From positions 62,001 through 126,000 of the forward strand of contig JAAOMT010000659.1 in assembly GCA_016748015.1 (NCBI GenBank): a stretch of 64,000 bases of DNA, written 5' to 3'. This document shows, piece by piece, positions 370-58,821 of the stretch. The notes beneath the pieces were generated by a model. That model saw only the letters and a program-made list of their open reading frames with translations. It had not been told where the DNA came from and searched no databases. Position 1 is the first letter of the stretch; every line of letters begins with the position of its first letter. A program made the translations under genes and the position numbers. This DNA comes from Geosiphon pyriformis uo1 (taxonomy: Eukaryota; Fungi; Glomeromycota).

Positions 370-1073
370 ATGTTAAATTGAACAACCAAAAGAGTATATA
401 AAAACATGGTATACATAACAAAAACAACAAAGAAAAATGAAAATACCAGATTATATTCACACTTTAGCTCAAAAATTGTTTCAGGTTTTAAGTTAGCAGC
501 AAGTAAACATAGAAATTATCATCAACAACCAAACAATCTGTTATTAAAACACCAAACAAAAAGAGAAAAGTACACTATACTAGCAACCACAGAAACAATC
601 AATAAACTGGTTGGATAAAATAGTAGAGAAAGTAAAGAACACTTTTGGAAAGATAACCAGCATAGTTCCAACAAAAGAACTGGTAAAAAAAAATTAGAAT
701 AAATGGTTAGACCAACTTTTAATACCATACTGTTACTATTAATTGGGACAAAAAGTAAATATTCAGAAGTTATATCTCAACAAATCCAAGAGAATCTTCA
801 ATCAAGAGATAATCCAGAACATTGAAAACATTATTGAAAAGAAAACAAACTTGAAATTACATATTAGAATCATTTATTGACTATACACTATATTTCAAAA
901 CTACCCAGAAGTATTGTTATACTTTGACATAGAAATAATAACCATCAACCAATGAGAAAAAATAAACAACTCACAAATTGAAGAAATAAAAAGTAGAGTG
1001 GAACAGACACTACTTGAAAAAAAAAGTATTCAACATAATTCAAAATGAGAATTTTGACAGAGCTCAATATTAA
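370..1073 (+). pseudogene. Decayed accessory ORF3 downstream of integrase
   Basis: Translates MKIPDYIHTLAQKLFQVL..IEIIINNQTI..YCYY*LGQKVNIQ..NFDRAQY*, homologous to 52020-52715; contains stops and frameshifts. Confidence 0.7.
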
Positions 1074-2185: not shown

Positions 2186-2841
2186 TTAATAAGAAGTATA
2201 AGTTTCAATCATAATATCATCTTCTCCAAAAAAATTGAGCTTCAGCAAAATCAAGCCATTTATGGTATAATCTATTTGAAAAGTTTTATCTAACTCAAAG
2301 CTAACTAGTTTGTTGAAGTTTTTTGTGGATAGGGTATATAATACTTGAAGTGAAATAAGTTTTGTATCCAAGAGACCAAATCTTTGTATTAAAGTTTTGG
2401 CTCTTTTAGCAATAGTTAAAACTCTTGGAACATCTAACCGTATAATGCCCAAAATTTGTGTCTGTATCTCTAAAGTTGTTTTCTTTATTAGTTTCATATT
2501 CTTTATGATTTCTCTAAGGCGACCATAGAGTTCTAATTGTCTTTTATATGACAAATTTTTGTTTATAGACAAGATTTCTTGGATTGTTTTTTCAATTGTG
2601 CTAAAAGGTGAAAGTATAGCTGCTATTATACTTTCTAACAAATATTTATTTATTTTGCTACCAATTTTTTTTCTTTTGGTAGTAGTTTTCTTTGGTCTAA
2701 TAACAATATGTATTCTACTGTTATTAGTTATGGTGGTTTGTTTTTCAATGATCAGAGTAGTATTTGGATAGTTTTTGATTCAATACTTATGAAAATATAG
2801 AAAGTGTTTTGAATGTTTTGATTCAGAAAATAATTGTTCAT
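2186..2841 (-). pseudogene. Family-B ORF3 (accessory ORF after integrase, running into the 3' LTR)
   Basis: ATG at 2841 (MNNYFLNQNIQN), 1-nt frameshift near 2790, then open 2641-2186; equivalent to 22519-23175. Confidence 0.7.
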
Positions 2842-7076: not shown

Positions 7077-10000
7077 TTATCCAGGAGTATTACCTTTTTT
7101 TAAGATAACTGGACTGTTTTTAGCCAACAGATTTTCAATATCCACATTTTTTTCTTCAAAAGAAGATTTTTTTTGTTCTACAACTAGTAATTGGATTTCA
7201 GGTAGTTCATTTTCAAAAGATTTTTGTACTTTTTTTAGTTCTTCTCTGGGTATTAAACTAATTGGCTCCTAATCTTTGTAATAGATTAAACAGAACTTGT
7301 ATTTATCACTAGGAGAATACAAAGATTTATTGCACCAGCATCTAGCACAAAAACTATGCCATCAATAGCTGTATTTGGCTTTCTTGCCAGACTTTCTATC
7401 AAAGATTTTTTTGAGAATATTATAGTAAGGCCAGCAAATCAACTTGCTATTTACCATAATTCCTTTTTTGTTAACTTTAATATTATCTAGTGACTTGTCA
7501 TTACTGGTAAAGATAGTATAGACAAGTTTAGCAGTTTTTTCTTGTTTTTTTTTGATCTTCTTCATTATCTGATTGCTCATCTTCTTAATTCTGTTTGGAT
7601 ACTGAAAGAGTTGTCTAATGACAACATTTAACCACAATAGATTTTTCACCACATTTGATCGTTAGTTCACAAAGTTTGTAATTAAGCAAGGCTTTTGCCT
7701 TCTTAAACCATTCATTGCCAACAATAATAGTATATTCTTTTGCTTCAGATATTTCTATGTTAGTCTTAATACTAATGTTATTGATGCAGACAGGAATAGC
7801 TTTGGCTATATCAAGCTTTTTTTTTTTGTCACTATGTACATTGATTATTGGTCTAGTTAAGAGTTCATCAATTTTTCTTTCAATAGCTTTCAGAAAGTGT
7901 TTGGCAATTATACTGACAAATGATTTATTGTTTAGGATTAAGTTAATAAAGTAACCAGCCACTTGGGCTTTGCAAATCAGAAAAATGACATTGCTGTTGT
8001 TAATGAGTTCAGCTTGGTGAGGATGTTTATTGGTTTTTGGTGTCTTTTTCTTTGAAATCAATAACTTGCAAAGATTTTTTCTAAACTGTAAATGAGTCAT
8101 TAGTTGGCCAAATGTAATGTGTGCTGGGGTTTTCATAAGATTTTTAAGGACCAAATTTTTGTATTATCTCTGGAAGTTTTAACTTTGAAGAATTTTTAAA
8201 AACTAGTCTTTAGTGGCTCATTGTTATTAGTAATTAATATAGATGCTTTTTTTGGATCTAGAACAAAATCAACTTTGGCTTTTTTCTTCTTTCTTGTTAA
8301 TTCAGAAGTGTTGATTGCTAGTTTATCCATGTCATGGTTATTATTAGTTAGGTTAAAAGCATAAAAGAGGTTTTCTTCTGGTTGGCTTGTACTCTCATTC
8401 TTTGGAGATGCATTTACTAGTTTAAAGGCTAATAAACAATGGCTTCAACAAGGGGATTCTCTCCAAAGAAATTGATGTTGGCATGATTGGGTCTTTGATT
8501 GGGGGCATTGTTGTTAATAGTTTTGTTGATTTGATTGTTATTGTTTCTAGAAACTGGAAGAGGCAATAGAAGATTGTTGCAATCTTTAAAAAAGTGTTCA
8601 GTTAATTCACAGCAATAGCACACAAGTGGGCCATGATTTTGCTGTTTTTAATAAGAGGGTTGCTAAGATTGATTAAAATAGAATTCAAATCTGAGTCTTT
8701 AAGATTGTTGATTATTTTTGACTGCTTGCACTAAAGGTTTCAATAACTGGGCAAAATTAGCTGTAAATCTGTCTATCAACTATTCATTTGGGTTTTGAGT
8801 TTGAGCAGCAAAAGAAATAGCAGCCATTTAAAAAACAGAGGCCATAACAGGAGCAAGAGCAAAAACTAGAAGTGTAGATTCCAAGTACATCCTTTGGTTG
8901 TCTTTAATTTATTGGGCAAGTTCAATGGCCATATCCATTGTGGAATTGTCTTTCAGGACCAGAAGAGGCCAAAGAGCATATAAGAGATTAGTTCTCAATT
9001 CTTTTGTAAAGAAGTAAGTTTTCTGTTTTTCTGTCCAATTTCTTTTAAAGTTTACCTGCTTGATTAACTTTCTGATTGCTTTGACATATTTAGTTACAAC
9101 TTTACTAGAACCTTGGATTCTTCTTTCTAATTTTATGCACCATTTGAATATCAAGATAGGAGTTCTAAATTTCATTTCAAACTGGATAGTGTTATGGAAG
9201 TGTTTTCTTGGTATATTTTAATTGTTGATCTCCTGTTTTAATTGCAATCAGTCTCTTATAAGTTCCTCTATTTTATGTGTTGAATAATTTTGATCAGGGA
9301 TTATTTTTTCAAAGAATTCAGAGATGGAATGATAGTTTTATTCACTAGAGAGAGTATGTAAATTTTATTGTTAATATCATAATTGTGATGTTTATTTAAT
9401 TTATTATTTTTTTTTTATTAATTATTTTTGAATAAGATTTTATTTAGATGTTTGTTGCTCCTAGTTGAAGCTGTTTTTTTTCATCATTAAAAACTATTAT
9501 ATATATATATAATTATTGTTTTACAAAATAATGTCTTATAATACTCTATTTCTATTATTTCTAAATAGTGCTTGCTACTATTATAAAATAGTGCTTATTG
9601 CTTTTGCACGATAGTACTTGCTGCTATTGTAAAATAGTGTTTGCTGTTATTTGTAAATTATTTTTTTTTATAAATTGTTGCTGTGCTATTTTATGATTGG
9701 CTAATTTCTATTATTTATAATTCCTATTAAATTCTTGAACTATAATATTATCTTCTTCTTTCAAGATTGAGCTTCGTCAAAATCAAAGTTAATTTTTTCA
9801 TTGAATTCTAAGTTGTTATAGTAGTCTAATACTGTATTATTAACTTGTTGTTGGAATTCTTAAAATTGGGAGTTGGTAAGTTGTCCAATACTGTTGGTTG
9901 TTATTATGTTCATGGTTGGATCCAATAATACTTTGTGACAATTTTCAAATGCTTTGAAAATTCTGTAAACTGCTTTTTAAATAGAATATAATGTTGGTTT

Positions 10001-11879
10001 TTTCAATAAAACTTTCTAATTGTTGGATTGTTGCTTTGTCAAATACTCTAATTGATGAGTAGGTTCATGATTTTTACATGTGTCTTATTCTTGACAAACA
10101 GTCAGCATTGGCATTTTTGGTACCTTCTTTGTATTTGATGATATAATTATATGGTGCTAATATTTGTGACCATCTGGCATATTTTCTTTTCAGCACTTTC
10201 TTGTTATTTAACCAGACCAGATCTCTATGATCTGTGGTAATACCAAAGAGTTTGTATCATAAATATGTGTCAAAGTGAATGCAACTCCAGACTACTGCTA
10301 AGCATTTCAGTTTATATGCTGCATAGTTTTGCTCTGTCATACTGAGACTTCTACTGGCATAAGCAATTACACGTTCTCTTCTATTATCATCTTTTTGTGA
10401 AAGAATGACTCCAAGTCCAGTTCTAGAGACATTTGTGGCCAAAATGAATTTCTTGTTGAAATTTAAATAAATCATTATTGTGATTCAATAAGCTTTTGCC
10501 TAAGGTACTTAAAAGCTTTTTGCTGTGTTTTGGTCTATTCAAATTTCACATTTTTGGATAGTAGATAATTAAGAGGTTTGACAATGTTTAAAAAGTTTTC
10601 TACAAAGTGGTGGTAGTAAGATGCGAGTTCTAAAAAACTTCTAACTTCTAAAACGTTTCGAGATACTGGAAAATTTTTCACTTTGTCTATTTTTGATGGA
10701 TCTGGTTTTATTCTATTTTTTTCAACTACGTGTTCTAGAAATGCTAGCTCATTTTTCCCAAAAAAACATTTTTCTAAATTTAATTTAAGTCTAATATGTC
10801 TTAATTTCTCAAAAACTTGTTGTAAATGTTGAAGATGATCTGCAAATTTTGGCAAGAAAACATTTGTATTATCCAAGTAGACAACAACAGATTGTCACAG
10901 AATTCCAGAATAAATTACATTCATTAGTCTTTGGAATATTATGGGAGTGTTTGTCAATCCAAATGGCATTATATTGAATTCATAATTGCCATTTTGTGTT
11001 GTGAATACTGTTTTATGCCTGTTTTTTGAGTCTATTTTCACTTGCCAGTATCTATTGGTCAAGTCAAGTGTAGAAAACCATTTTGCTCCTCCAAAAATGT
11101 TGAAGATTTTATCAATTAATAGTATTAGGTATGAGTCTTTGGTTGTTTTGCTGTTTAGTTTGTGATAGTCAATGCAAAATCTAATTTTTTCATTCTTTTT
11201 TCTTACTAAAACAACTGGTGAGAACCATGGACTTATTGATATTTGAATTATTCTTTTTTCTAACATGCTTTGGACTTCTTCTCTGATAAAATTATGCTTC
11301 ATTGGTGGGACATAGTAAGCATGTTGTTTTTCAGGTCTGGCATCCCCAGTGGGGGTTTGGTGTTGAACCAAGTTGGTTCTTCCAAATTCACCATTTCATA
11401 AAAATATATCAGAATATTTTAAAATTAATGCTTTTAATTGTCACTATTGGTCCAGATCCATTGTTCCAATGTTTAATTTGGCCAATTTTTCTGGCATAAA
11501 TTGATAGCATTCCAACAGTTGTTGTCAATTTATTAAAGTGAGTTTACAGTAAAGGGCAATTTCTGGGAAATTTAGAATTTCTTGTGGTGTTGATGCATTT
11601 TCTAGCTCTATTCTAAGATATCCCATGATGGTGTTTTCTGGAATATATATGAGCTCTTCTGTGGTATTTGTGATAGAAATTTTTATTCATTGTGTTTTGT
11701 TAGCTGGAATAAAAAGGTTAATAAGTCTTATGGAAAACTGTTGGCAAGTTTCTGGGTGGGGCTCGAATATTAGATTTATATCTTTTATTGTCTTTTTTAT
11801 TTTAATTTCTGATTTTCCATAAGGTGTGAGTGTGATTGACCACTTATTTCTAATTAATTCATTTTTCTCCTCTGGCATT

Positions 11880-12300: not shown

Positions 12301-12543
12301 TTCCTAAGTGCCCATTGTTATAGTACCAGATACTAATCTTCTGATCTAGATTAGTATAGGCTAAAATATTTTCTGACTCAGAACCATCAGGTGAGTTTTG
12401 TTGATTTATTGATTGATTTTGGTACTGTTGATTCTTAATTTCCATTTTTTTTTCTAAGTCCTTTTTGTATTGACACTTTTTATAGTGCTGACTTTGGCAC
12501 AGAATAAGACAATCTTTGCAAAGGTAAGTGTTGATCTGAGCAA

Positions 12544-22518: not shown

Positions 22519-23175
22519 TTAATAAGAAGTATAAGTTTCAACCATAATATTATCCTCTCTAAAGAGACTAAGCTCTAGCAAAATCAAGCTATTTATAGTG
22601 TAATCTATTTGAAGGGTTTTATCTAACTCAAAACTAACTAGTTTGTTAAAGTCTTTTGTGAATAGAGTATATAACACTTGAGGCAAAATAAGTTTTGTAT
22701 TCAAGAAACCAAATCTTTGTATTAGAGTTTTGGCTTTTTTAGCAATAGTTAAAACTCTTGGGACATCTAATCATATAATGCCCAAAATTTCTGCCTGTAT
22801 TTCTGAAGTTGTTTTCTTCATGAGTTTCATATTCTCTATGATTTCACCAAAACAACCATAGAGTTCTAATTGTCTTTCATATGACAAGTTTTTGTTTATG
22901 AATAAGATTTCTTAGAGTGTTTTTTTAATTGTGCTGGAAGGTAGAAGCATAGTTGCTGTTATACTTTTTAACAAATATTTATCCATTTTACTACCAATTT
23001 TTTCTCTTTTGGTAATAGTTTTTTTTGGTCTAATAACAGTATGTGTTTTACTGTTATCAGTTATAGTGGTTTGTTTTTTAATAGTCAAAGTAGTATTTGG
23101 ATAGTTTTTGATCTAATATTCATGGAGAGTATAGAAGACATTTTGAATGTTTTGATCCAAAAAATAATTGTTCAT
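22519..23175 (-). pseudogene. Family-B ORF3, about 218 codons
   Basis: ATG 23175 MNNYFLDQNIQNVFYTLHEY*IKNYPNTTLTI is in frame with ORF 22519..22704; the stops seen are single-transition derivatives. Confidence 0.72.
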
Positions 23176-37211: not shown

Positions 37212-40202
37212 TTACAAAGTTTGAATATTATTTAATTTGTCTAATTCTTCAAAAATATTATTCGGAATTCTTCTATGAGATTTATACTTTTTTATAGCAT
37301 ATTCTACTAATTTTCTATTAAGACCTTTTCTATAAAGATTCATATAACACCAATATTTTCTTGAAAATTGTCTAATAGTTATTAAAAATACTGATTCAAG
37401 ACTTTTAGACACTGTTTTTTGTAATTCTTTCCATGAATAATTGCATTTTTTACATATATATCTTTTAGCAGCTTCCCAATATCTTTCAATAAAATTTAAT
37501 TTGCAATAAAATTTTGGAAAAAAAATGCACTTATGTCCCATACTTTCGATTAATTCTTTAATTGTATTTTTTTGAACAAAAAAATCAGATTCCAAAGATA
37601 TTACTCAACATGCACAACAAAAAACTCTTGAAAAATCTTTGATTTTTTCTTTGCATTTTTGGCATTCTAATACTAATCCTTTTGATGGCCATTTTTCTCA
37701 TTTTATTAATACTTGTTTAATTTTTTTAGGCAATCCTCAAAGTTTTTTATCTGAATATGTTTCTGGAAAGATTATTGATTGTAATTAATTATCTAATCCT
37801 AAAAAAGTATCTTACATTAATAATTGCTTTCCACTTAGACTTAAATTCATTCTGCTTACAATTAAAGTATCTTTACTAAATGCTACATAATTAGAGCTAT
37901 TATTAAAAACAAATACAGCTGTTGTTACTCATAAAAAAAACAGATATAGAAAATAATAGACCAATAAGAAAGTAGTAGTTAGCACATAAGCATATTGCTC
38001 AGCAATGTGAAGTGATATTAGAAAATTAGGGCACATTGCTCAACAATGTGAATATTGCTCAAGAAATCATAGCACATTGCTTGGGAATGTAAGCAATCTT
38101 ATAGAACATCAATTATGTATATATAGCAGTAGCATTAGAAAAAAAAAAGACAAACCTCCCAGTTTAGATTTGATCTGAACAGTCTTTGATATCACAAATA
38201 CTAATAAATAATTATTCACTATCTTAATTTATTTCCACTATTAATACTTCATGTTAATAATAATTAATACTTAACCATACTGAAACAATAGCTTTTGATT
38301 ACAGCTATTAATGGAATATTAATCTTTATTGCCTTGGCTTATTCTTTTAATTTTCTTTATTTTCTGTTATTTTTTTTGTTATTTCTGTTGTTTTCGAATT
38401 ACTAAAAGATTTAAAGTGCTGAGTTATTAATATTAGAATATAGCACTGATAAAAGACCCAAGAATAAAAGTAGACACTCAGATTTGAAGATAGCTTATCA
38501 GGAGATTGCCAGCTATTATACCAAGAAAAAAATTGACGGAATTGCAATTCCAAAAGTAATAGACAACAACTACTTAATTTGTAGGTTGACATATAAAACA
38601 TCATTAAAGAAAAACCACCTTAAAACCTCTGTCCATTATACAAAAAACTCCATTAAAATTTTCAGATAATCAAAACTCTCAAATATTACTAATGAAAAGA
38701 AATATCAAGCACCAAGTTACAGTTTGTTATTTGACTTAAGACACCAAATAAACATCTGTAATACTGTACAATCTGAATATAATTTCTCAAAAATTGGAAT
38801 TGCTTTATATTTAATTTGTTTAAAAAGATAGTCTGTTATCCAATAACTATCTTGATTTATACCAGATTGCAAATAGCATCTTGCCTCTTCTGGTATATTA
38901 AAATAATTTTTTATATTATTTTGTTGTAAATATAAATGTCCATTAATTTCAGTTAAAAATTTACTGACCATAATTAATCTTCTATTTCCTTTTTTTCTTA
39001 GTGGCAAATTTTCATGCTCAGCCCATATGCTATACTTGCCATTATTTGAATAAAAAATGCATTTATTATAGATTACAAGAACTTTTTTTTTTCTATTAAG
39101 TAAGTTAGAACATATTTGATCCATAAATTCATCTTTATATTTTGACATATATTTTTTATGCTCATATATTTTTTCTAAAAATTTTTTTCAAAATTACAAG
39201 ACATTATTTTTTTCATGTTTATTATAATATAAGTCTTAATAATATTGTTAAAATAAATAACTAAGAATTTTGAGTCATCTTACTGCAGTTATAAAACTAA
39301 TTGTTTTTATTATTATTATTCTAATATTAAAAAACAATTTATGTTTGATGAATTTTTTAAATATGATTGAAGTGGCATTGAAGTTTTGGTTTCTAATTCA
39401 AATATAACATCTTTTTGCAATGTTTTAATCATCAATTATTCTATTTGTTTTTTGGTGTTTTCTATGTTTTAATGTTAGAAACTTATTATTAAGCAACCAA
39501 TACTTTGCAAAATATCAAATTTTTTGTGCTTTTTATATACTACTATTAATAAAAATCTTTTGGGCAATTTTCAAACTGGCATTAAATTTTTTATATTCAT
39601 TATTATCATTTAACAAAGTAAGATATTCAAAAATAACTCTTTTTTAATTATATTTGAAAACAATTAACTGAACATGTTGTTTTTCTAAATGTTTTTTTAA
39701 CTTTTGCTTTTTTTTTATTTGATTAGCATACAGATCAATTTTACTTTTTGAATTGCTTAAAGATTCATTAGATTTAGACTATTATAAGTCTGTAGTTTAA
39801 GCATCACTAATATTAAAGAAAGTGATAATTTTTTTAGTTCTGGCTGCTGCTTTAATAAATAAACTATTTGGTCTATATTTATTATAATAGGTTAACTTTG
39901 GTATTTTTTTATTATGTAAAAGCCTTACTTTTTTTTTTTAGATAATTGTTATTTTTCTATACTAAACTGAGTTTTTTTAATTTTGTATTTATTCTAATTG
40001 TGGTTTTTATATCTTCTATATCATTCCATCTACTGTTATTATTGTTGTTTTACTTTCTATTACAAACATTCAGTCTGTTAAATTTATTTACTTCAATATT
40101 ATGATCATTTATTGAAGTGGTATAATATGTTTTTTTATATAATTTTTTTGTATTTCTAACTTGATCTTTAGCTTTTTTTTTTTCTTTAAAATGAAGTGGC
40201 AT
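37212..40202 (-). pseudogene. Decayed IS630/Tc1/mariner-like DDE transposase, interrupted by a solo LTR
   Basis: Motifs VIYNKCIFYSNNG (HDE-type), LRKKGNRRLIMVS, AVFVFNNSSN, CQKC..CCAC, FFPKFYCKLNFIERYW, KKYKSHRRI. Probable ATG at 40202. Confidence 0.8.
37923..38763 (+). repeat. Solo LTR type A1 inserted in the transposase
   Basis: TGTTACTC..GTAATA ends; perfect TSD CTGT. Confidence 0.93.
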
Positions 40203-43342: not shown

Positions 43343-44271
43343 TATTACTCATAAGAAAAACATATAAAAAAAATAGAAAGAAAACAGATAGACCAATATT
43401 ACTTATAGAAATATAGAGAATATATATATTAGCATAGTTATTAACCAATCAGAAGTAGACGTAGTAAAATGTGGAATTTCAGGATTTTTCTCAAGAATTG
43501 CAGGATTCCAGAAATTACAGGATTCTCACAAGGAATCACAGGATTCCAGAATTCCAGAATTCCTCTCAAAGAAATTGCAGAATTCCAGGAATTCCAGAAT
43601 TCCTGTAGTGAAAAATTAAGGAATTGAGGAATCTCAATTATGTATATATAGCAGTAGGATTAGAAGCTAAAAAGACAGACCTCTTAGTTTAGATTTCATT
43701 TAGACAACTTTCCAAACCACAAATAAATAACTGTTTGTTATCTCAAACCCACTGCCACTATCAACACTTTATGTTGATAGTAATTGATACTTAACTATAC
43801 TGGAACAATAGCTCTTGATCATGGTTATTGATGGAATACTAACTTGCAAATTGCCTTGGCTTATTTCTTTTTTTTCTTTATTTTCTTTTTTTTTCTTTAT
43901 TTCTTGTCTTGATTTTATTGTTGTTTACTAACTCTATTGAGAATTAATGTGTGAGGTACTAATGTCAGAATAAACATGACTGGTAAAAGACCCAGAAATA
44001 AGGGTAGAACACTCGATTGAGGATAGCTTACCAGAAAAAATACCGGCCATCAAGCTGAGAAAAAAATTGACAAAACTGCGGTTTCAAAAAGCTACAGATA
44101 AAACTATTACCATTGAATCTCTGTTTATTATACAAAGAACTCAACTAAACTCTTTAGATACAAATCTTTCAGACATAAATCTTCAGATTACTATCAACTG
44201 CAACTAGAGTTGAGCACCAAGTTATGGGTTTGTTATCTAATCCAACACCAAAACTAGTCACCTGTAACATT

Positions 44272-44288
44272 TGGTGCTCCTTGTGAAG
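44272..44288 (+). promoter_or_regulatory. Primer binding site, tRNA-Met(elongator)- or Ile(UAU)-like
   Basis: TGG-T-GCTCCTT-GTGAA-G, 2 nt after the LTR; consensus with 54115, 18330, 30801 and 31850 is TGGTGCTCYCTGTGAGG, i.e. the complement of CCA, discriminator, acceptor stem and T-stem. Confidence 0.85.
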
Positions 44289-44328
44289 TATAATCCTACA
44301 AAGAACCAGCACCAACACAAATCTAAAA

Positions 44329-47300
44329 GTCACAGAATCAGAAAACATAGGAGCAAACCATCTAGGATTCGCAAAATCCTTATTTCAACACTACTGTCAA
44401 CATTTGGGATTAAATTACAACCACATATTAGCAGAATTAGTTTCAATTTCTATTTCAATAAAAGAATTGCCTATTTGTTAGGAACACCAGTAAATATCAA
44501 ATCGGCAAGAGAAGCCTTTTACAGTAAATTAATTCAAAATACCAATCTGCCAACAAATCACAATTTCGCCTCCATCATTATGGAAATCAACAAAGAAATT
44601 GAACACCACACACAGCAAAAATACCCCATTACTTACGCAAGCAAAGGCAAAAGAAAACTGCAAATACCAACAGTAACATCCAAAAGAATACAACCACCTA
44701 CTTGGAAGAAAACAAGAGTTGAATCCCTAATTAATCTATCATATTACTATATACCCAGAAGCACCATTAATATTACATCTACTGGCGTGACCACATCAAA
44801 CATAACATCAGCATTTGGATGATTTCCATTCCAAAGTAAACAAAAGAAAGCAGAGTTATTAGGACCATATGGCACATATTTTAAAGGATTTAACTCATAA
44901 TCATCAATGCCATCAAGACTCCAATCACTACCGTTTTCCTCAGATTTCGGAATTTTTGATCTGTGGAAAGTAATGGAATCAGAAGAAGAGGAAGAAGAAG
45001 AAGCTAAAAATCAAGAATTTACTTACCAGAACCTGATCACTGAAAACCCGGAATTTGAAACCCCGAATCTTCAAATCCAGCAAAATCTAAACCCAGAAAA
45101 TCTGGAAATTGAAACTCTGAACATTCAGACACCACCAACTCAGGATAATCGAAACCCCAATTTAATAAATCAACAAAACTTACCTCCAGTAATCATTATC
45201 AATCAACCACCAATTAATTCAATAGCTGAACCCATATAACCGTCACTTTAAATACCACCCCAACAACCCATGCAACAACAACCACTTCAACTACCACCAC
45301 AACAGCCCAACTTAGATCTAATGGCCTATGCACCAATCACAAAACTTGACAATTTTACCAGTGAAGAAGACGACACCTAAATATGGCTCAATGATGTTGA
45401 AAAAGCCATAGTAGCCAATGAATAGAACAATGGTAGAGCTCTTCAAGTGATCCCCTATTTTTTCAAAGATACTGCCGACTCATGGTATCAGAGCCTAGCT
45501 GCCAAACCACAAATCTTTAATGAGTTCAAAACAGAATTCTTGAGATACTTTAGTAATAACAATAATATCAATCACTTGACCAACACATTCACTACCATTA
45601 AACAAGAGGACACAGAAGCAGTCACCACTTACTTGGAACACTTCTATAGAAATCTGCGCCAAATTCAGGCAATCCAAGCTGATTACTTTACAGCATCACA
45701 GATCTTGAACCAGTTCATCAGAGGATTGCACAGTAGCATCCTTCAGCAAATACGTTTAATGCATCCAGTTGACCTCCCAACCACCATCACCCATGCCAGA
45801 GATTTTGAAGCAGCCGAGCTAAAAGCCAACCATGCCCAAGCTGTAAATTTAGTGATGAACAGATTATCTGACTTGGATTCCAAACTGAAACAATTCAGTG
45901 ATACAATCAATCAGAAACTTGAGGGATACTTAGCTGACAATCATGCAATCTATCAACCACTACAATGACACAATAATTCAGAAAACATGAATTGTTTCCA
46001 AAATCAGTCGTATCTATCAACATTATCATCATTATCATTACCCAATCAGCCATGGCAGCCAGAAATGCATGTTTGCCACAATTGTGGTAAACAAGATCAC
46101 ATTAGAGCTGACTGTCAATTTTATAGCAACAATCTATGATTAGGAAATTAATATTGAAACCCTGATTGCAGATTTTAGACTCAGAATCACTACCCAAATC
46201 AAGACCAATATCAAACCACTTACCTGCCAATAATGCAGCAACCAATCTATCAACCACCAGTATATCAATTTCCAATTTATCAACTGTAGCCACCAGTAAT
46301 TTATCAGCCACAGCCCCAAATAATTTATTAGTCCCAACAACCAATTCAAACACCACTCCAAAACCCCACTCAAATGACATCAGAAAACCCAAGACCTAGA
46401 ATCACTCAAAACTGGAGATCAGTGATAGTTGTTTATCAACCAATTCCCAGCTTCTCTAACCAACTATTAGGCTCTCAACAGTGGAATTTGGGTACCAGTT
46501 TCACCCAAAACCCAAATTCTCAGAACTATTTAAGTCTTCTGGTTACCCCAGAAGATGCCACTACCAACAACTCGGAATTCAACCCACCCCAAACAACACT
46601 CACCAACAATATTTTACCAGCAATGATCACCGAAAATGAATCTCTCGCAGCTATCTTTCCTTTCAAATTGGAGGAAACCATCAACCCATCTTTGTTTAGT
46701 GAAGCAGCACTCAAAGAAAAACTCATCACTGCAATATACACTGATGCGAAAGTTGATGGTCACTCCATCAAACTAATCCTAGATAGTGGATCAGCTGGCA
46801 GCATCATCACAAGACAACTTATGGATCAATTAAGTCACCAAGTTGATTGTACTGCCAGCACCAGGATTATTACAGCCAATAGAGCAACCAAAACACCCAT
46901 TGGAAAGATTAATGATTTTCCCATAGAAGTCAATGACATTATAATACCAATCAAAATACTCGTCATGGAAGCCACTCAATACCAAGCACTTGTTGGGAAT
47001 TACTGGCTGTCCAAAACCAACATAATCCTAGATTGGAACACCCAAGAGCTCCAGCTTAGCCAGAATGGTCAACACACACAGGTACTAGTCATGTGTGGCC
47101 ACTTCAAGCCCATTACCATGCCATCAAGACCACTTATCGAATTTGAGAAAAAAAAAGTGAAACCCATCTGGAAAGTGTACCAAGTCTCATGGGCTGATGT
47201 CGATCACAATGAACTGCTGCCAATACTCATTTGAAACAACAACGACAACAAAAAGAAGAAACAAAGAGAAGAACCTACCTGGGAAGCCACCATTGATGCT

Positions 47301-50300
47301 TGGACTGACAACAACCAAAGTGAGATGCCACCAATTCTAGATTGGGAAGAAAAAAACAAAGAAAAAGGAAAAGGAAGGGAAGAAAACATACTTGAAGAAA
47401 CCACCACTACAGAAGAAATAACTAGTGGCTGGGAAAGGGAATATTCATGTGAACCAATAAAAGAGCCACCATATATACCTCTCAAATGCAAGGACTGTGA
47501 GAAAAAACTGTCTTCAATGGGAGCTTGGGTAGTGCCAAATAAAGACTACTGGATGCAAATCCATTACTATTACAAGCCTTGCCATAGAGAATGATATGAC
47601 TACCCAAAAAGACAAGGCAAGTGGGACAATGAACCATGTCTTGCTTGCGGTAAACAATTACTCAATGAAAAAATGTGGAATAACATTTCTGGTTGAGAAG
47701 AAATGTGTGACACTTCGTGCCAATACACAATCCTCATCAGTAATTGGATGAGTCATAGTATGCCTATTATAGCAGCATGGCACCAAGTTATATCTTGTCT
47801 AAATGGCTATTCACACGATGAGAACAAAATCTGGCAAATGGTCAATGTTAAAGTAGAAGGCACTTTGCCCAGTAAAATTCTGGAGATCAAAAATAACCCT
47901 CCAGAACCAACAGACATTGTTTTGGTTCTCAACCCGGACGCCTTTATTGACTTAGAAAACAGCCCAGAAGAATTTCATAAACACTATCAGAATTTAACAC
48001 CCATAAGAGAAGAGCAAAAGCAATGCTTGGAAGAAATCAACACCCAATTATGTGACTACTGTTTGATTCCATGTAACTTCCAATTCTGTGATGATTGTAA
48101 TCTTATCTACAATCCACCACCACACATGATCTACACGATTTCCGAAGAAAAAAAACCAATCAACAGCTGTGCATCAAAATCAAAATTGAGTTCCAACCCT
48201 GATTTAAACTCTGACAACAATGATAATGAAAATAATAGTTCCAGTTCTATTCAATATAACTATAATAATGACAATAATTCCAACTCAGATTCAAACTTCG
48301 ATTTAAACTATGAACAATATATTGCACTCCCTGATCTCACCAAGAAACAAGAACTAAAATGATTCAGTGATAATAATGAAGCTATTATGCTGGAACACAC
48401 ACATGATACTAATGCTGGATTTGATTTGAAGTATCCAGGAAAAGATGCCATTAAATTGAAACCATATTTGCACATCTGCATAGATCTTAAAATAGCTTTG
48501 GAAATTTTAGCAACAACAATAGTTCAACTAGCTTCAAGGAGTAGTTTAGTGAAAAGAGGGATAAACATCAAAGAAGGAATAATTGATGCAAGATATATAA
48601 GAAATATTATTGCTATACTACAAAATGACTCAGAAAAGGCCTATGTTATAGAGCCAAATGAAAGGATAGCACAGACAATATTCCTGCCTCTGGTTAAAAT
48701 AGCTCAGTTAGTGTTAGTAAAAAATAAGGAAGAATTAGGGATAACAGCAAGAGGGATACAGAGATTTAGATCAACGGATAGAATAAATGTACCAGTTAAT
48801 ATGGTGGAGAAAAAAATTATTGGCCAAAGAGAAATTATTTCAACCAGTCAAACAATTTCCATTCCACTAAATAGCCAATATATGTTAGCAATAAAAAGGA
48901 AAGAGAAAGAGCAAGAACAGATTTTTGAAGCAGAAACAATCCTTTGTGAATCAGAAGAAATTGAACTTATCAATTTACATATACTAGCCAAGAGCCATAA
49001 CCATATCAAAATTTCTATCTAGAACAACACCAGAAATGTTGTAGAAATACCGGAAGGAACCACTCTTAGATATTTAACCATGGAAATTAAAGATCAAGCA
49101 CCAAGCAGCATTCCAGATTTTCCACAGCTTTGTGGATATGTGGATATTACATTACAAACCATCTACAGACTAAATGAATGTTATCTGTTACAGCCAAAAC
49201 AATTGAAACAGATGAATATGAGAAATCTAGACTCACTTCAACAGATACAACTAAAAATGTTACTCAATAATTTCAATGACATCTTCACCAGTGAAAATGA
49301 ATTTGGCAGAACTGATATTATCCAGCATCAGATCAAAACTGGAGATGCAATGCCAATTAAACAGCAAACATACAGAGTACCACCAGCCAGCCATGAAATC
49401 ATCCATCAAGAGATCAACCAAATGCTTGACAATGGGTTAATTCAGTCATCAATGAGCCCATGGTCATTACCAGTAGTACTCATCCATAAGAAGAATAAAA
49501 AAATCCAATTTTGTGTAGACTACAGGAAACTCAATAGTGTAACTCATGGAGACAACTATCCAATTCCACAGATACAAGAACTATTTGACACTTTTGGTGG
49601 AAACAAATGATTCTCAATGTTAGACTTAGATAGTGGTTACTGGCAAGTAGTCATGGATCCAGCCAACAAAGAAAAAATGGTGTTCACCACAAGAGGGAAA
49701 ACTTTGAGTTTGAAGTTATGCCATTCAGCTTAACCAATATTCCAGCTATATTTCAACAGCTAATGAAAATTGTGTATACTGGCTTATTGTGGAAATCAGT
49801 AGTTGTATACTTGAATGATACCAATGTGTTCTCAAAAACATTGATGATTATCTACATCATTTTCAACAAGTGTTCAAAAAACTATGACAAGCAAGATTAA
49901 AATTGAATGCAACAAAGTGTTTTTTTGGCAAAACAAAACTAAAATTCTTGGAACACATAGTTAGCAAAGACAGCATAAAAACAGATCTGGAAAAAATAGA
50001 GATAGTAAAGAACTTTCCAATACCAACCAACGTAACTGAGCTGAAATCATTCTTGAGATTTGCGAGCTATTATAAACACTTTATAAAGAACTTTTCAAAG
50101 ATAGCACAATTACTCAATGATTTTTAAACCAAAAATGCAAAGTATGAATGGACTGAAACCCAGCAAGAAGCATTTGACATCTTAAGAAGAAAGCTTATTT
50201 AAGCTCCAGTATTGATTTATCCAGAACATAGTAAACTATTTATTATTACCACTGATGCATCAGGTCAAGCATTGGGAGCAGTATTATCTTAGAGAGAACC

Positions 50301-51985
50301 AGATGGAAGAGAACATCCAGTCGCATATGCCAGCCAAGGTTTAACACCAGCCGAAAAGAACTATAGAACACTAGAATTAGAACATTTAGCAATCTATTAG
50401 ACAGTTATGAAATGAAAAGAATACTTGAGCCAAAAGTTTGAGATGTACACAGATCACAAAGGATTGACATCACTCTAAAAACAAGAATTTGGAGACGGAA
50501 AACAGTTAAGATAGAAAATGGCACTTGTACTATATACTTATACCATACATTATAAAAAGGGAAAAGACAATGGAAATGCCAATGGTTTGTTGTGAATGAG
50601 ACAAATCTAAGAACATTTTAACCCAAAAATATAACAAAATCTGAACAATATTCACGAAAATATAACAAAAGATGAACACACAAAAATATTAACAACTTTA
50701 ACATTATATAAATACTCAACAGTTTAAAGAAAAATTATCTCAACCAGAACAAAAGAGGATTAAACAACAATCCAAATATTTTATCACTTACCAAAATATA
50801 CTTTATCGGAAAAATAGAAAAGATTCAGATCAATCAACCAGAGTAATTACAGAATCAAAAAAAGAGACAATACTGTTCAACATGCACTTAAATCTAACTG
50901 CAAGACATTTCCATAAAGAAACAACTATGGAAAAAACCAAAAAGGGATACTATTGGCCATCAATGTATTCAGACATCATCCAATATGTGCAAAATTGTGA
51001 TGCTTGTCAAAGAAGAGAAGGAACAAGACTCAGCAAACTATTAAGACCAATCAAAGTGGGACAACCATTTGACTGCATTGGAATCGATTTAGTTGAACCA
51101 TTGACAATTACCAGTAGAAACAACAGATATATTGCAATAGCTATGGACTATCTTACTAAATGGCCAGAAGCAAAAGCAATTTAAAGAGCGGATGCAGAAT
51201 CCATTGCTGAATTTGTTCATCAAGATCTGATTTGTTAACATGAATGTCCAAAAGAACTATTATCAGACCAAGGAACTCATTTTGTGAATAGAACATTAGC
51301 AGAACTAAGCCAAAGATTCGGAATTAAGAGACCACTATCATCACCATACCATCCACAAACCAATAGATTAGTTGAAAGATTTAATAGAACATTGTGTAAA
51401 GCAATAACAAAACTCAGCTAAGAAAACCAGAATGAATGGAATTTGTTTATACCATCAGTATTATTTGCTTATTAGACAATACACCATTTGAATTGATATA
51501 TGGTAAAACAACAACATTACCAGTTGAGATAGAGGTTAACACATATCCAACTGAACCAATAACAGAAGAGAATTTTCAAGAAACATTGTTAAGAAGAACA
51601 TATAACTTAATAGAAACATTGAAAACAAACAAAGAAGAGCAGCTAAGAACATACAAAAGTCACAAGAGAAACAAAAAGAAAAACATGATAACCAACTACC
51701 AGACAAACCAGTTGAATTCAAAATTGGAAACAAAGTACTCTTACATCATACCAAAGCAGAAAAACAATGGAGTGGAAAATTTGACTCCAAATGGGATGGA
51801 CCATTTCACATAAAAAAAATTCTAGGCAATAGAGCTTACAAATTAAGACTGGATAACAAAATCTTAACCAAAGCAGTACATAAAGATCGACTGAAATCAT
51901 ATTACAACATCACACCACCATCCACTAGTAATATTTTACAATTAGGAGTACAGAAGATACTAGTTCAACCAGAAGAGATTCCATG
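44329..51985 (+). pseudogene. gag-pol: Single-frame gag-pol polyprotein, decayed (~2500 codons)
   Basis: ORF fragments 44271, 44907, 45447, 46374, 47325, 47703, 48387 and 49080 share one frame. Capsid ~45321-45970; knuckle CHNCGKQDHIRADC 46074-46115; protease LDSGS 46779; RT YLND 49808; RNase H TDAS; integrase HHCC, GIDLV, SDQG, VERFN, WDGPF. Confidence 0.95.
48387..48780 (+). pseudogene. dut: dUTPase domain between protease and RT
   Basis: AGFDL, SRSSL, GIIDARY, ERIAQTIF, RGIQRFRST correspond to the five trimeric dUTPase motifs. Confidence 0.92.
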
Positions 51986-52019
51986 AGATCTGGAACCAAT
52001 CATCATTATTGACAACAAC

Positions 52020-52715
52020 ATGTTAAATTAATTCATCAAAAGAATATATAAAGACATAGTAGACATGACAAGAAATATCAGAAAAATGGAAATTACAGAC
52101 AACATCCACTCACTAGCACAACAACTCTTTCAATTGATTCAACACCAAGAGATGGAAATTACAATTAATCAACAAACCATCTGATATCAAGACACTAGAA
52201 AGACATTGCCACATAGAACACAGAAGAAAACAGAAAATACCATTGACAAAATCATTGCGAAAGTAAAATTAGCAATAAAAAAGTTGACAAAAGAGTCACT
52301 ATATCAAGAGTTGACTAAAGAAACTTGGAATTGGTGAATACAACAATTTCCAAGAAACTATTGTTATTTTTACTTGGGACAACACGTAAATATCCAAAAT
52401 CTATATATGGATAAAACAAAGTGATTATTCGACACAAGAATACTACAACAATTAGAACATTTTGTGAGAAAGAACAACTTATCCACACAGGCCCGAGCCA
52501 TATACCAAATACACACAGCATTTCAGGATCAACCAAAAATCTTACTCAACAAAGCAATAGATATGGTTACCAATAATCAATTAAGAAAGATCATTAATGC
52601 TCAATTTAAAGAATTATAGACTCAAATAACACAAGTAATTCTCGAAAATGAAATTCAAAAAATATTTCAAGAAGGGAAATTAACAGAGTTAGATTTTGAC
52701 AGAGCTCAATATTAA
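52020..52715 (+). pseudogene. Accessory ORF3, 231 codons, unknown function
   Basis: ATG 52020 to TAA 52715 with no frameshift; the five internal stops (TAA, TGA x3, TAG) are each one transition from a sense codon. Confidence 0.8.
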
Positions 52716-55700
52716 AAGGAGAGAATAATGTTACTCATAGAAATATAGAGAATATATATATTAGCATAGTTATTAACCAATCAGAAGTAGATGTAGTAAA
52801 ATGTAGAATTCCAGAATTCCTCTCAGAAATTACAGGATTCCAGAAATTACAGAATTCTCACAAGAAATTGCAGGATTTCAGAATTCCAGAATTCCTCTTA
52901 AAGGAATTGCAAGATTCCTGTGGTAAAGAATTGAAGAATTGAGGAATCTCAATTATGTATATATAGTAGTAGGATTAGAAGCTAAAAAGACAGACCTCTT
53001 AATTTAAATTTCATCTAGACAACTTTCCAAACCACAAATAAATAACTGTTTGTTATTTCAAACCTGCTGCTATTATCAACACTTCATGTTAATAGTAATT
53101 GATACTTAACCACACTGGAACAATAGCTTTTGATTATGGCTATTGATAGAATACTAACTTGCAAATTGCCTTGGCTTATTTCTTTTCTTTCTTTATTTTC
53201 TTTTCTTTTCTTTATTTCTTGCCTTGATTTTGGGAAGCTACAGATAAAACTATTACCATTGAATCTCTGTCCATTATACAAAGAATTCAACCAAACCCTT
53301 CAGATACAAACCTTTCATACACAAACCTTCAGATTACTATCAACTGCAACTAGAGTTGAGCACCAAGTTATGGGTTTGTTATCTAATCCAACACCAGAAC
53401 TAGTCACCTGTAACACCAATAAGAGAATAGTAGTTAACACATGAGCACATTGTTCAAGAAATTATAGCACATTACTCAAAAATGTGAGCAATCTTATAGA
53501 ACCTAAATTATGTATATATAACAAAAGTATTAGAAACAAAAAAAAATAATTTAAGAATTACCAATATCTCTTTATTATCACATTTCTATTATAATTATTA
53601 ATATTAATAAATAATTATTATCATCTAAATTACTCTTTCCACTATCAACACTTCATGTTGATAGTATTAAATACTTGATTAAATTAAAACAATAGCTTTT
53701 GATCATAGCTATTAACAGGATATTAACATTACTTGCCTTGGCTTATATTTTATTTTTTTTAAATTTTCTTTTGTATTTTATTTTTTTGTTGTTACTAATT
53801 GATTAAAGATTAAGCACTGAGTTATTGACATCAAGGATTGTTTGGTAAAAAACTCCTGTAAGAGGGTAGACACTTAAAATTAAGAATTACTTATCAAAAA
53901 ATTACTGGTCACCAAGCCAAGAAAAAAATTGATGGAATTGTGATTCCAAAAAGCTACTAAAAACAACTATTAAATCTCTGTTTATTATACAAAAGACTTA
54001 ATTAAAACCTTCAGACAACCAAAATCTTCAGATTATAATAATTGTATCAACTATTAGTACCAAGTTACAGGTTTGTTATTTGATTTGAGACCCTAAATAA
54101 TTATTTGTAATATTTGGTGCTCTCTGTGAGGTATAATCCAACAGAGAACTAACATCAACAACAACCATTCAAAACAGTGGCAGAATTCAAAAAAACAGGA
54201 ACAAACCATTTGAAATTTGCAAAATCTTTATTCCAATATTATTACACCCATCTTGGATTAGTAAATAATAATTGGCAGCTTTCAATTATTATGTTAACAA
54301 AAAAATTGCATACTACTTAAGAGATTAAAGAGATCCAGAATCTATTTTCAACAATTTTTTTAGTGAACTATTCCAAAGCACTACTCTTTCACAAAACTAT
54401 TTATTTGCATTCCTAATCATGGAAATAAATAAGGAAATTAAAAAATACACCAAACAAAAATTTTTTATCACTTTTGTGAACAAAGAAAAAAAAATTACAA
54501 ACACCAGCAAGAACCCCAAAGCAAATTCAACTACTTACTTGGAAGAAACAAAAATTTGATTCACTTGCTAATCTATCATATTACCATACACTCAGAAGCA
54601 CTATCAATATAATAGATATATCTATAGTAAGTGCAACAACATTACTAAACAGAATCCCATTCCAAAGTAAACAAAAAAAAGCAAAGTTATTAAGAACATA
54701 TAGCAATTATTTTGAGAGATTTAACTCATAATTCTCAATGTCATTAAGAATTTGATTATTGCCACCACCACCAGATTTCAGAGCCACTAGTCCTTAGAAA
54801 TTAACTGACTTTGAAGAAAAAAATAGCAATCAGAGAATTAATACTAAAAACCCAATCTCAGAAAATCTGGAAAATTAAACTTCGAGTGTCCTAACTTCAA
54901 AAAATCAGAACAATTCTAATCCCAACATTATTAATCAGTAACACTTACCTCCAGTAATTATAATCAATCAGTCACCAATTGAACCAATTACTGAACCAAT
55001 TTAATAATCACAAGTATTACCTTAACAACAATCACAACAATTACTTCAACAATTGTTATAACAACAACTAATAGCATATGTACCAATTGCCAAAATCAAA
55101 AAATTTATTGGCAAAGAAAATGATGCCCAAGTGTGACTGAATAATGTAAAAAAAGCCATTATAGCCAATAGATAAAATGATGCCAAAGCACTCCAAGCCA
55201 TCTCATATTTTCTCTAGGATACCATCAACTTGTAATATCAAAGCTTGGCCAACAAATCTCAAGATTTCAATGCATTTAAGTTTGAGTTCCTATGATATTT
55301 TAGTAACAATAATAGTATTAATTACTTAGCCAATGCCTTCACCACCATTAAGCAAGATAAAACTAAAGCAGTTACTACTTACCTAGAACACTTCTACAGA
55401 AACTTGCACCAAATTCAAGCCATTGATGCCAATTATTTCACCATAGCCCAAATCTTGAATTAATTTATCTGTGAATTATGTAGCAACATCCTGCAACATA
55501 TACATCCACTACATCCAGCCAATCTTTAAACAGCTATCACTCATGTCAGAGATTTTAAAGCTGCAAAACTCAAAGCCAACCATGCACTAGCTGTGAATCT
55601 AGTAATAAATGGATTATCTGACTTGGATTCCAAATTGAAACAATTCAGTAATTCAATTAATCAGAAATTAGAAGAGTACTTAGCTAACAATTAGACAATC

Positions 55701-58700
55701 TATTAACTATCACAATGATGTAATAATTCAGAAAACTCAAATTATTTCCAAAATTAAATACATCCATCATTATTAATCAATCAACTGTGGCAACCAAAGA
55801 TGCATATTTGTTAAAATTGTGATAAACAAGATCACATTAGAGCCAGTTGCAGAGTTTATAACAATAATTCACAATTGGAAAATTAATATCAAAACTCCAA
55901 TTGCAGATTTCAAACTCTGAGCTATTACCCAAATCAAGATTAATACTAATTCAATTACATCCCAATAACACAGCAACTAATGTACATACCTCCAATTTAT
56001 CAACTGGCAACACTCATAATATATTAACCACCACAGTTATCAATAATGTATTAACTACAAACCATTTAAATACCACCACCAATAACTGTGCCCAATAGAA
56101 ATCAAAGACCAAGAACCATTCAGCAAAACTGGAGATTGGCAATAATTGTTTATTAACTAATTTCTAGTATATCCCAACAACTCTCAAAATTGCATCCAAG
56201 AAATTTGGGAACTGGATATGCCCAAAACCCAAATTCTTAAAACTATTTAAGCCTCCTTGTAACCCCCAAAACCATCCAAACCAACAACCAGAAAACAAAC
56301 CAGAAACCACTTACCAGCAATATTTCATTAGCAACAGTTACCAACAACAAATTACTAACAGCCATTTTTTCTTTTAAAATTAAAAAATTAACTGCAACAT
56401 CTTTTTTTAATAGAGCTGCCCTTAATGCCAAACTCATCACTACAATATACACTAATATCAAAATTAATGGTCAGTCAATCAAATTGATCCTGAACAGCAG
56501 TTTAGCAGACAATATTATCACATAACAACTCATAAACCAATTAGGTTGCTGAGTTAATCATACAGCAAGCACCAGAATTATTACAGCCAATGGACCAATC
56601 AAGATCTCTATTGGTAAAATTAACAACTTTCTTTTTGAAATCAATAGCATTATTGTTCCTATCAAGATATTGGTAATAAAAACCACTCAGTACTAAGTTT
56701 TAGTTAATAATGACTGGTTGTTCAAGACAAATACTGTGCTTAACTAGAACATTCAAAAATTGCAACTCAGCCAAAATAACCAGCATATGTACATACCAGC
56801 AATTTGCAGTCACTTTAAATCTATGACTACACCAGTACCACTAATTAATGTTAAAAAAGAAGTAAACAAACCTACCTGGGAAGTCTATCAAGTCTTATAG
56901 GCCAATAACAACCATAATAAACTACCACCAATTTTTACCTAGAAAGAAAAGAGAAAAAAAAAAGACAAAAAGAAAAAAAAAACCAATCCAAACTACTACT
57001 TTTACATATATACTATACACTCACATACTACAAATTCAGCCAAACTATTACTGACCAAAGCTTATCTGCATTGATTGTGGCAAGAAATTGACATCAATAG
57101 ATACATGCTGTGGCAATAACAAAAAATAAACAATGGTAACAAAGTTTTATTGCCAATTATGTGTCATAGAGCATTTTAGATGACCTAAACGACAAGGAAA
57201 GTAGAATAATAAACCATGTTTTGCATATAGAGAAACTTTATTAGATAAAAAAATGTGAAATAACATTCCAGAACAAGAAAGAATGTGTAACAAATTGTGC
57301 CAATACATGATCCTAATAAGTAACTGAGTAAGAAAAAAGACATTAATAAAAGTAGTATGGAAAAGAGCAATAAGACATTTGAACAGATATCTATATAACA
57401 ATAATGAAATATGGCAAATAGCATTCACCAAAATTGAAAAAGCATTATCAAAAGAAATAAAAGTGATTAAAAACAACCTATCAGAACTCATAAAACTCAA
57501 TTGGAATTTAAATTCAGATATTGTCTTAGATTCTATGAACTTAAAACAATTTCATGAACACTACCAAAAATTAGCACTCATTAGGAAGAAGCAAGAACAA
57601 TGTTTAAAGCAACTAAACACTCAATTATGTGACTACTGTTTGATCCCATATGACTTCTAATATTGTAATAAGTGTGATCTTATTTACAATTCACTGATGC
57701 ACATAGTCTACATGATTTCTGAAGAGGAAAAACCAATTAATAGTTGTGTATTGGAATTGAAATTACAGTTCAATCTTGATTCAAACTCCGACAATGATGA
57801 TGACAAAAACAATGGTTCTAGCTTTGTTCAAAATAGCAATAAAAATAACAATGATTTGGACTTTTATTTAAACCCAAAACAATATATTGTGCTTTCTGAC
57901 CTTATAAAGAAGCAAGAACTTAAATGATTCAGTAATAATAATAAAAGTATCAGGCCAAAACACACACATGATACTGATGTAGAGTTTGATCTAAGATATT
58001 TAAGAAAAAAAGCCATCAAATTAGAACCACATTCACACATTTGCATTGATTTCAAAGTAGCACTAAAAATTCCAGAAACAATGATAATTCAATTATCATC
58101 TAGGAGTAGTTTAGCAAAAAGAACAATCAATATCAAAAGAAAAATAATTGAGACAGAATATGTGGGAAATATTATTGCAATGTTACAAAATAACTCAGAA
58201 AAGACTTATATCATAGAACCAAACAAAAAGATAGCACAGACAATATTCCTGCTTCTGATTAAAATAGCTCAATTAGTATTAATGAGAAACAGAAAAGAAT
58301 TAAGAATTACAGCTAAAGAGATTAGTGAATTTAGATCCATGGGTAAAATACCAGTTAATATGACAAAGAAAGAGGTTCTTAACAAGGGAAAAATTATTTC
58401 CACCTGTCAATCAATTTCCATTTTGCCATATAACCAATACATGTCAGCCATAGAAAAAAAAGTAAAAAATCAAGCTCAAATTTTTAAAGTAGAAATTACC
58501 ATTTGCAAATCAGAAAAGATTGAACTTACCAATCTTTACATACTAGCCAAAAGTCTGAAACATATTAAAATTCTCATCTACAATACAACAAGAAATATTA
58601 TTGAGATATTAAAAGAAATCACCATTAGATATTTAAGCACTGAGATTGAAAAACAACAACCAAACTCCATTTCAGACTTTCTAAAACTGTGTAAATATGT

Positions 58701-58821
58701 GGATATTACATTACAAACAATATACAGACAAGAAGAATATTATCTGCTCCAACCAAAACAATTAAAACAGATAAACTTGGAAAATTTAGACTCATTACAA
58801 TAAGCTAAAGATATTACTCAA

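Follow-up and report, generated by a model that had tools for sequence, protein, structure and literature searches.

ORF3, an undescribed protein family encoded between integrase and 3′ LTR in Ty3/Gypsy elements of Geosiphon pyriformis

To our knowledge, Gypsy elements are thought to need gag and pol only, and most of the extra open reading frames (ORFs) at their 3′ end are without a known job. A regulator encoded by the element itself is Tas/Bel1 of foamy viruses, which occupies a 3′ position, possesses an acidic tail and binds to its own LTR promoter. For Ty3/Gypsy elements, additional ORFs in sense orientation that lie behind pol and ahead of the 3′ LTR (aORF-3S or ORF3) are known from the accessible parts of PMC7264820 and PMC5408684, and some fungal Gypsy elements are drawn with an "add. 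ORF with unknown function" in the accessible part of PMC2864245. The genome of Geosiphon pyriformis contains 41.2% LTR sequence according to the accessible text of PMC11952901. We analyzed a stretch of 64,000 nt of this genome (the window; all coordinates refer to it unless a contig is named), for which a sequence-only reading had proposed a conserved, unannotated ORF behind the integrase of three divergent Gypsy families.

The window consists of decayed LTR retrotransposons nested in one another. Positions 43397-53415 constitute a complete Ty3/Gypsy element (F) with the order gag-PR-RT-RH-IN, paired LTRs, a polypurine tract (PPT) and a target duplication of 4 bp (CCAA, 43393-43396 and 53416-53419). 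It interrupts an A-type LTR at its CCAAT box. The 5′ LTR (43397..44269, +) pairs with a 3′ LTR (52729..53415, +) that has suffered an internal deletion of approximately 190 bp; comparison of the pair gave 638 matches, 54 transitions and 2 transversions, and the element is CpG-depleted (o/e 0.20). The stretch TTTGGTGCTCC... (44270..44290, +) resembles a primer binding site on the basis of position and TGG start only. It is followed by a gag capsid fragment (45426..45968, +; Retrotrans_gag E 1e-12, Ty3_capsid E 4.5e-9), an aspartic protease frame (46332..47234, +; gag-asp_proteas E 1.6e-8) and, in the interval between protease and RT, a dUTPase (48363..49022, +; Pfam dUTPase E 1.6e-15). RT and RNase H (49300..50595, +, start approximate) are broken and close with a stop at 50593-50595. 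The integrase, also broken, is a separate frame past this stop (50672..52031, +), for which a terminal stop at 52029-52031 is inferred. Its C-terminus is a Tf2-like SH3 tail (SH3_Tf2-1 in Pfam), and no chromodomain match to this tail was obtained with Pfam. The PPT (52714..52725, +) overlaps the stop codon of ORF3.

Some further features of the window were recorded. Protease and dUTPase of element F are set apart by a long coding segment that is Cys/His-rich and acidic/Asn-rich (47235-48362); it gave no Pfam match and is possibly a second accessory domain. Other dUTPase-like frames were spotted by look in the protease/RT interval at 57928-58803 and 11957-12667. A split pol, in which an RNase H stop precedes a separate integrase frame, is unusual among Gypsy elements. 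An RNase H stop followed by an integrase frame with its own ATG was seen in F (50593-50674), in both B elements (near 4270-4200 and 24600-24530) and in L001 (772-801), a little-damaged metagenome element. A short element at 28817-31820 (-) has two F-type LTRs and a heavily deleted interior, in which nothing but the last codons of an ORF3 is left ahead of the PPT. In addition, there is a tandem array of higher GC content and 75-bp period adjoining a 75-N gap (35990-36384), a 429-bp duplicate of 100% identity within an RT region (4485-4913 and 4934-5362), which is either a recent duplication or an assembly artefact, and a group of frames at 37212-39187 (-) that we take to resemble a DDE transposase.

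ORF3 of element F is located between the integrase and the PPT/3′ LTR. It had been described as a frame of 231 codons at 52020-52715 (+), and its length, its position directly past the integrase and its end at the PPT/3′ LTR were confirmed, while the start at 52020 was not. This ATG reads ACG in 45% of the depth of sister-copy contigs. Position 52056 reads ATG in 69% of the sister-copy depth and ATA in the window copy; annotated gene models begin at 52056 or 52086, and the other lineages begin near 52086. The frame contains five in-frame stops (52029, 52182, 52335, 52422, 52617), which had been attributed to deamination. The last four are damage of the individual copy: at these sites alignment A3 shows a sense residue or a gap in each of its 19 other rows, and sister-copy contigs differ from the window copy at 52337 and 52617. 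The first, at 52029, is of another kind: the only variant listed in sister-copy contigs is A to G at 52030, and the codon, TAA or TGA, is still a stop (52354/92837 depth). Because the stop at 52029-31 is retained in sister copies, ORF3 is a separate gene of about 209-219 aa. The codons ahead of it continue the integrase tail, and their counterpart in metagenome contig L002 closes with its own stop. Thus, ORF3 (52056..52715, +) is separate from the integrase and starts at 52056 or at the conserved ATG 52086, which yields 209 aa; with four internal stops, the window copy is dead. Another stop at 51984 is probably damage as well, because the residue at this position is Arg in L002 and Gln in P0261.

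The homologues in families A and D, which had likewise been proposed, were recovered by tblastn within the window (A: 431-1018, 41% identity, E 1e-33; D: 9767-10046, E 1e-8), and a family HMM run over the six frames of the window detected three ORF3 copies only (F, A and D). ORF3 of family A (437..1073, +) contains stops and a frame break near its 3′ end and is followed by a PPT; a one-base shift separates the integrase-tail region from the ATG at 437. The family D copy (9761..10070, -) consists of the 3′ half of ORF3 and is a deletion product, the end of RNase H being joined directly to it. Database searches with the frame of F yielded 88 close matches, each of them (88/88) a hypothetical protein of Geosiphon pyriformis, with up to 90% identity. 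Many copies are therefore annotated, and the label "unannotated" had to be dropped. The suggested resemblance to a motif of arbuscular-mycorrhizal hypothetical proteins was not recovered either, all named matches being from Geosiphon, including 17 representatives that were looked up. Annotated proteins and a single DNA run supplied the copy sets. In this run 21,590 contigs matched the 1.8-kb stretch, from which it can be inferred that family F is very abundant, depth not being a copy number.

When 1.84 billion representatives were searched with a profile, 89 matches were obtained, 14 of which were already among the 88 direct ones. By nearest family, the 75 new matches were assigned to F (53), E (10), A (6), D (4) and metagenomes (2); this classification rests on 19 looked-up representatives (17 from Geosiphon, the two others being the metagenome proteins P0262 from ENA and P0267 from JGI/ENA) and for the rest on similarity. 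Searching with P0262 and P0267 produced 33 matches, namely three metagenome proteins and 30 proteins of Geosiphon family G (18/30 near full length). The ORF3 family thus comprises seven lineages with 16-43% identity, five in Geosiphon and two on metagenome contigs. In a tree, each of the six lineages with at least two rows obtained starred support; long branches meet, and the deep order is unsure. Residues Y102, N145, F160, L167 and I195 are common to the seven lineages, and G108, K143, R155, N178 and G181 are near-invariant. Intact homologues exist at 25-37% identity. L001 has the order RT-RH, stop, integrase, a spacer of 316 nt and an intact ORF3 of 230 aa with its own ATG, which passes through the purine tract into TGTTA, probably the start of the LTR. 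In L002 the spacer between integrase stop and ORF3 measures approximately 700 nt; another open frame of 137 codons (L002:398-811) was noticed there. The viral contigs, phages and plasmids searched contained no ORF3 relative.

To judge whether ORF3 is a selected gene, as the sequence-only reading had stated, substitution patterns were compared, bearing in mind that the protein-guided codon alignment lowers pN/pS and that dS is near saturation. F and A gave a pN/pS of 0.44 (95% 0.35-0.56, 187 codons) with 89/43/101 differences at codon positions 1/2/3 and indels that keep the frame; the other five frames of this comparison gave 0.63-1.88. The value for F and D was 0.55 (0.40-0.77), for the integrase tail by the same measure 0.41, for L001 and L002 0.70, and for F and L001, with saturated synonymous sites, 0.78. 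From the low values and the conservation of second positions it follows that ORF3 is under purifying selection. That the proteins are alike while the DNA has diverged proved only partly true, as blastn still aligns A with F (69% over 1.6 kb). ORF3 changes faster than the integrase: its identity to L001 is 28% vs 54-56%, its F-A identity 43% vs 75% for the integrase tail, and F and A differ by 21 second-position transversions in ORF3 vs 0 in the integrase tail. Along the element, F-A transversions amount to 0.00-0.04 in the integrase tail and mostly to 0.14-0.29 in ORF3 and U3, with a dip at the PPT, and drop to 0.06-0.08 in the 3′ part of the LTR. This pattern fits an exchange of an ORF3-U3 block or a fast joint change, the four-fold sites (25, 12) being too few to tell these apart.

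The claim that ORF3 has no transmembrane segment and is not an env gene is sustained by a 19-residue hydropathy maximum of 0.43 in F and of 0.27-1.33 over 10 proteins. Signal peptides were looked for by hydropathy scan only, and none was seen (N-terminal 9-residue maximum 1.11 in F). The structural picture derives from the metagenome protein P0267, whose AlphaFold model (20-row mixed alignment) reached pLDDT 77 and pTM 0.64, compared to pLDDT 39 for a model of F only. It predicts a helical core at residues 71-200, with pLDDT 82-95 in ten-residue blocks, preceded by an N-terminal part with a weak helix and a hairpin and then a disordered basic linker. Residues 30-60, which fall into this low-confidence region, include a basic segment (PYxRK-like) that is conserved. 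The charge of the tail is -2 to -7, that of F being just mildly acidic. Hence the description as an accessory, selected, non-env gene common to F, A and D, with a predicted helical product, can be upheld.

Searches for known folds and domains gave little. Pfam returned no family for the window frame and none recurring among the matches listed for 22 members. A Glypican match on P0029 (E 3e-5, 1/20 proteins) was below the cut-off, the unnamed phrog_23683 of PHROGs was hit by 6/22 members with a best E of 0.0019, and the best match of the PDB sequence search was importin-5 (E 0.49). Foldseek gave 0 matches at E<=0.001 against PDB and BFVD, and a VIA structure search of 48,161 chains none at Z>=5, the best scores (Z 4.5-4.7) lying below the noise level of the tool. 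Neither a GDSL esterase nor a DEDDy exonuclease was among the Pfam matches listed for the 22 members and 20 proteins; E138 is the sole acidic residue common to six of the seven lineages, with no His. Nor did foamy virus Tas occur among the matches listed for Pfam, PDB and BFVD.

A weak lead points to a helix-turn-helix (HTH) of the ParB/DUF1016 type in the predicted core. In Pfam, DUF1016_N was found below the cut-off for one of 20 proteins (E 0.056), and three ParB-family DNA-binding domains were among the 50 VIA matches listed of 48,161 chains: 1vz0 (Z 3.8, rmsd 5.1, 93 aligned), 1r71 (Z 3.3, rmsd 5.2, 96 aligned) and 6s6h (Z 3.3, rmsd 3.1, 59 aligned). Alignments were built of 23 DUF1016_N, 14 DUF3102 and 29 ParB HTH domains (a subset of the matches listed). 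These families are mutually related (E 3e-6 to 2e-3; DUF1016_N and HTH_ParB E 3e-6). The whole ORF3 profile aligned to DUF1016_N, DUF3102 and ParB with E 0.037, 0.28 and 0.12, and block shuffles scored as high in 4/40, 8/40 and 1/40 cases, respectively. With the core, E was 0.021 for DUF1016_N (1 and 0/100 shuffles), 0.061 for HTH_ParB (3 and 2/100), 0.21 for DUF3102 (21/100) and 0.055 for the merged set; over E 0.021-0.061, shuffles scored as high in 0-4/100 cases. These families were picked after the matches had been seen, and none of the values is significant at database scale. All core alignments are in one register that places G-K-T-N on the HTH turn. The helix past the turn differs by family, and this putative recognition helix is Arg-poor in F, A, D and E. 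Taken together, the profiles and the model suggest a lead rather than a match. The N-terminal domain of YhcG itself is mainly helical and unassigned in the accessible part of PMC1189080.

Family B carries an ORF of 218 aa in the same position as ORF3 (22519..23175, -), which extends across the PPT and enters the LTR; a second copy (2186..2841, -) has a frameshift near 2800. With 129 database matches, many of exactly 218 aa, and a pN/pS of 0.46 between the two window copies, it is a real ORF family, and many annotated copies are intact. Its position and size are those of ORF3, and so is its charge layout, with a basic patch at 40-60 followed by an acidic tail; it stops inside the LTR, as the ORF3s of family G and the metagenomes appear to. 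Nevertheless, the assignment of B as a distant ORF3 homologue was not borne out: profile-profile comparisons gave a probability of 0.1-0.2%, HMM scores were within those of shuffles (for each B protein, between 44 and 1588 out of 1991 scored at least as high), and hhalign scores lay at the null mean. By five tests, homology to ORF3 is not detectable, and the B ORF is an analogue or beyond detection. It has no Pfam family match, and the Atlas gave unnamed clusters for the B protein P0091 (0.92, 133-150 shared features) with no usable lead.

Where intact, the U3 regions of families F, A, D and B share one plan, TGTTA, a CCAAT-like box, a repeat array and TATA, but each family has its own repeats. 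In a survey of 15 stretches (one misplaced, two shortened), GGAATTCC-like words occurred 5-6 times in four F-type LTRs and 0 times in the other 11 stretches. In element F the 5′ array (43470..43605, +) fills the interval from CCAAT box to TATA box with 6 copies, and the 3′ array lies at approximately 52800-52915. The 19-bp palindrome CACATTGC-TCA-GCAATGTG was present two to three times per LTR, with 8 sites in four A-type LTRs, among them those at 1158 and 1199 behind ORF3 of family A. Family D has four direct repeats with 23-bp spacing in both LTRs and family B an array of a 12-mer. As the patterns were chosen from the LTRs themselves, shuffle counts show repetition only. Palindromes set at intervals would be suitable sites for an HTH protein acting as a dimer; host factors could use such sites equally. 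A reading of the F array as heat-shock elements was not supported (40 matches vs 30.5 expected, 5/100 shuffles, one near-match per F LTR).

Trans-activation, anti-silencing and targeting had been offered as functions of ORF3. The weak HTH similarity, the acidic tail and the family-specific U3 arrays suggest a regulator that binds to the LTR, to which we give a probability of roughly 40%; of the three, trans-activation by way of LTR binding has the most evidence, all of it indirect. The protein would be translated by reinitiation or from a downstream or subgenomic message, as would the integrase with its separate frame, might enter the nucleus by means of its basic patch (residues 30-60), would bind to the U3 array of its family through the ParB-like HTH and could raise transcription from its own LTR promoter through the acidic tail. 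On the other hand, U3 evolves fast and adjoins ORF3, so that co-divergence may be mere linkage, the arrays may bind host factors, and family B has an array without a detectable ORF3 homologue. The same basic segment, together with the split RT-RH, integrase and ORF3 frames, which imply several RNA species or reinitiation, could speak for an RNA-binding export or packaging factor like retroviral Rev or CERV of Cer1 (precedent in the accessible part of PMC10309623). We consider this unlikely, as the strongest leads, structural and profile-based, point to DNA-binding domains and no RNA-binding family match recurs among ORF3 members. A factor acting against methylation or small RNAs, possibly by binding to repeats, is a doubtful reading, too. 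VANC is the comparison for anti-silencing by repeat binding. CpG depletion, the excess of transitions in the LTR pair and the fast divergence of ORF3 from L001 relative to the integrase agree with it, as do the methylation of transposable elements and the production of small RNAs by AM fungi (accessible part of 10.1101/2021.03.30.436303); however, no nuclease, demethylase or suppressor family was matched, and ORF3-bearing copies are heavily deaminated all the same.

The position directly past an integrase tail that gave no chromodomain match might also indicate an integration-targeting or intasome partner replacing this domain, and element F does sit in the CCAAT box of another LTR. Yet a single nested insertion is no evidence, and the F-A divergence of ORF3, compared to that of the integrase tail, is unlike that of a tight partner, which makes this explanation improbable. 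That ORF3 is a C-terminal extension of the integrase, fused or read through, is highly improbable: ORF3 of F does share the frame of the integrase tail, with one conserved stop between them, but this stop is kept as TAA or TGA, family A is out of frame, and L001 and L002 have their spacers. Neither a continuous frame nor a chromodomain or other known domain that would mark a known integrase extension was found. Finally, the four stops of the window copy could mean that there is no gene but a stop-poor, AT-rich frame carried along with the element. The pN/pS of F and A, second-position conservation, in-frame indels, intact homologues and the confidently predicted fold leave hardly any room for this, and ORF3 is very probably a gene. 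A more far-reaching version of the LTR-binding regulator, which we regard as speculative and rather unlikely, would be a self-encoded transcription factor with a ParB/KorB-type HTH, perhaps of bacterial or plasmid origin, whose recognition helix and U3 operators are matched by family, which would be exchangeable as an ORF3-U3 module and of which the B ORF would be a far-diverged member. If this is true, the retrotransposon, which helped to fill about 41% of the genome with LTR sequence, would possess a feedback circuit of the Tas type.

In the literature searched (subscription journals sparsely covered, supplements outside the scope), no description of the ORF3 family was found; the slot is a known one, the protein family undescribed. 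It has been retained over seven lineages in an LTR-rich host and accounts for hundreds of annotated "hypothetical proteins" as retrotransposon debris. ORF3 proteins and candidate U3 sites form natural matched pairs. ORF3 resembles the aORF-3S of the accessible descriptions in its position and orientation, in being carried by most copies of a family and in having a start codon of its own; it is sense, separate from pol, family-conserved and under selection. What separates it from the described examples, which in these parts of the literature are env-like transmembrane proteins, GDSL esterases and DEDDy exonucleases, is that it has no transmembrane segment, gave no match to such families and is fungal. 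The elements drawn in PMC2864245 are also fungal Gypsy elements with an extra ORF, and a dUTPase between PR and RT is reported there, too, a comparison made by the accessible description only. With ParB/KorB, DUF1016_N (the N-terminal domain of YhcG) and DUF3102, the predicted core would share a Y-x-x-I-G helix followed by helix-G-K-x-x-helix ending in R-L-x-x-x-F. However, E values are 0.02-0.2 and Z is under 4, the context is a eukaryotic retroelement, and ORF3 has an additional N-terminal helix and hairpin and no nuclease or CTPase domain. From foamy virus Tas it differs in that neither sequence nor fold similarity was found among the matches listed and no internal promoter was identified for the ORF3 element; by analogy, ORF3 is proposed to work in the way of Tas.
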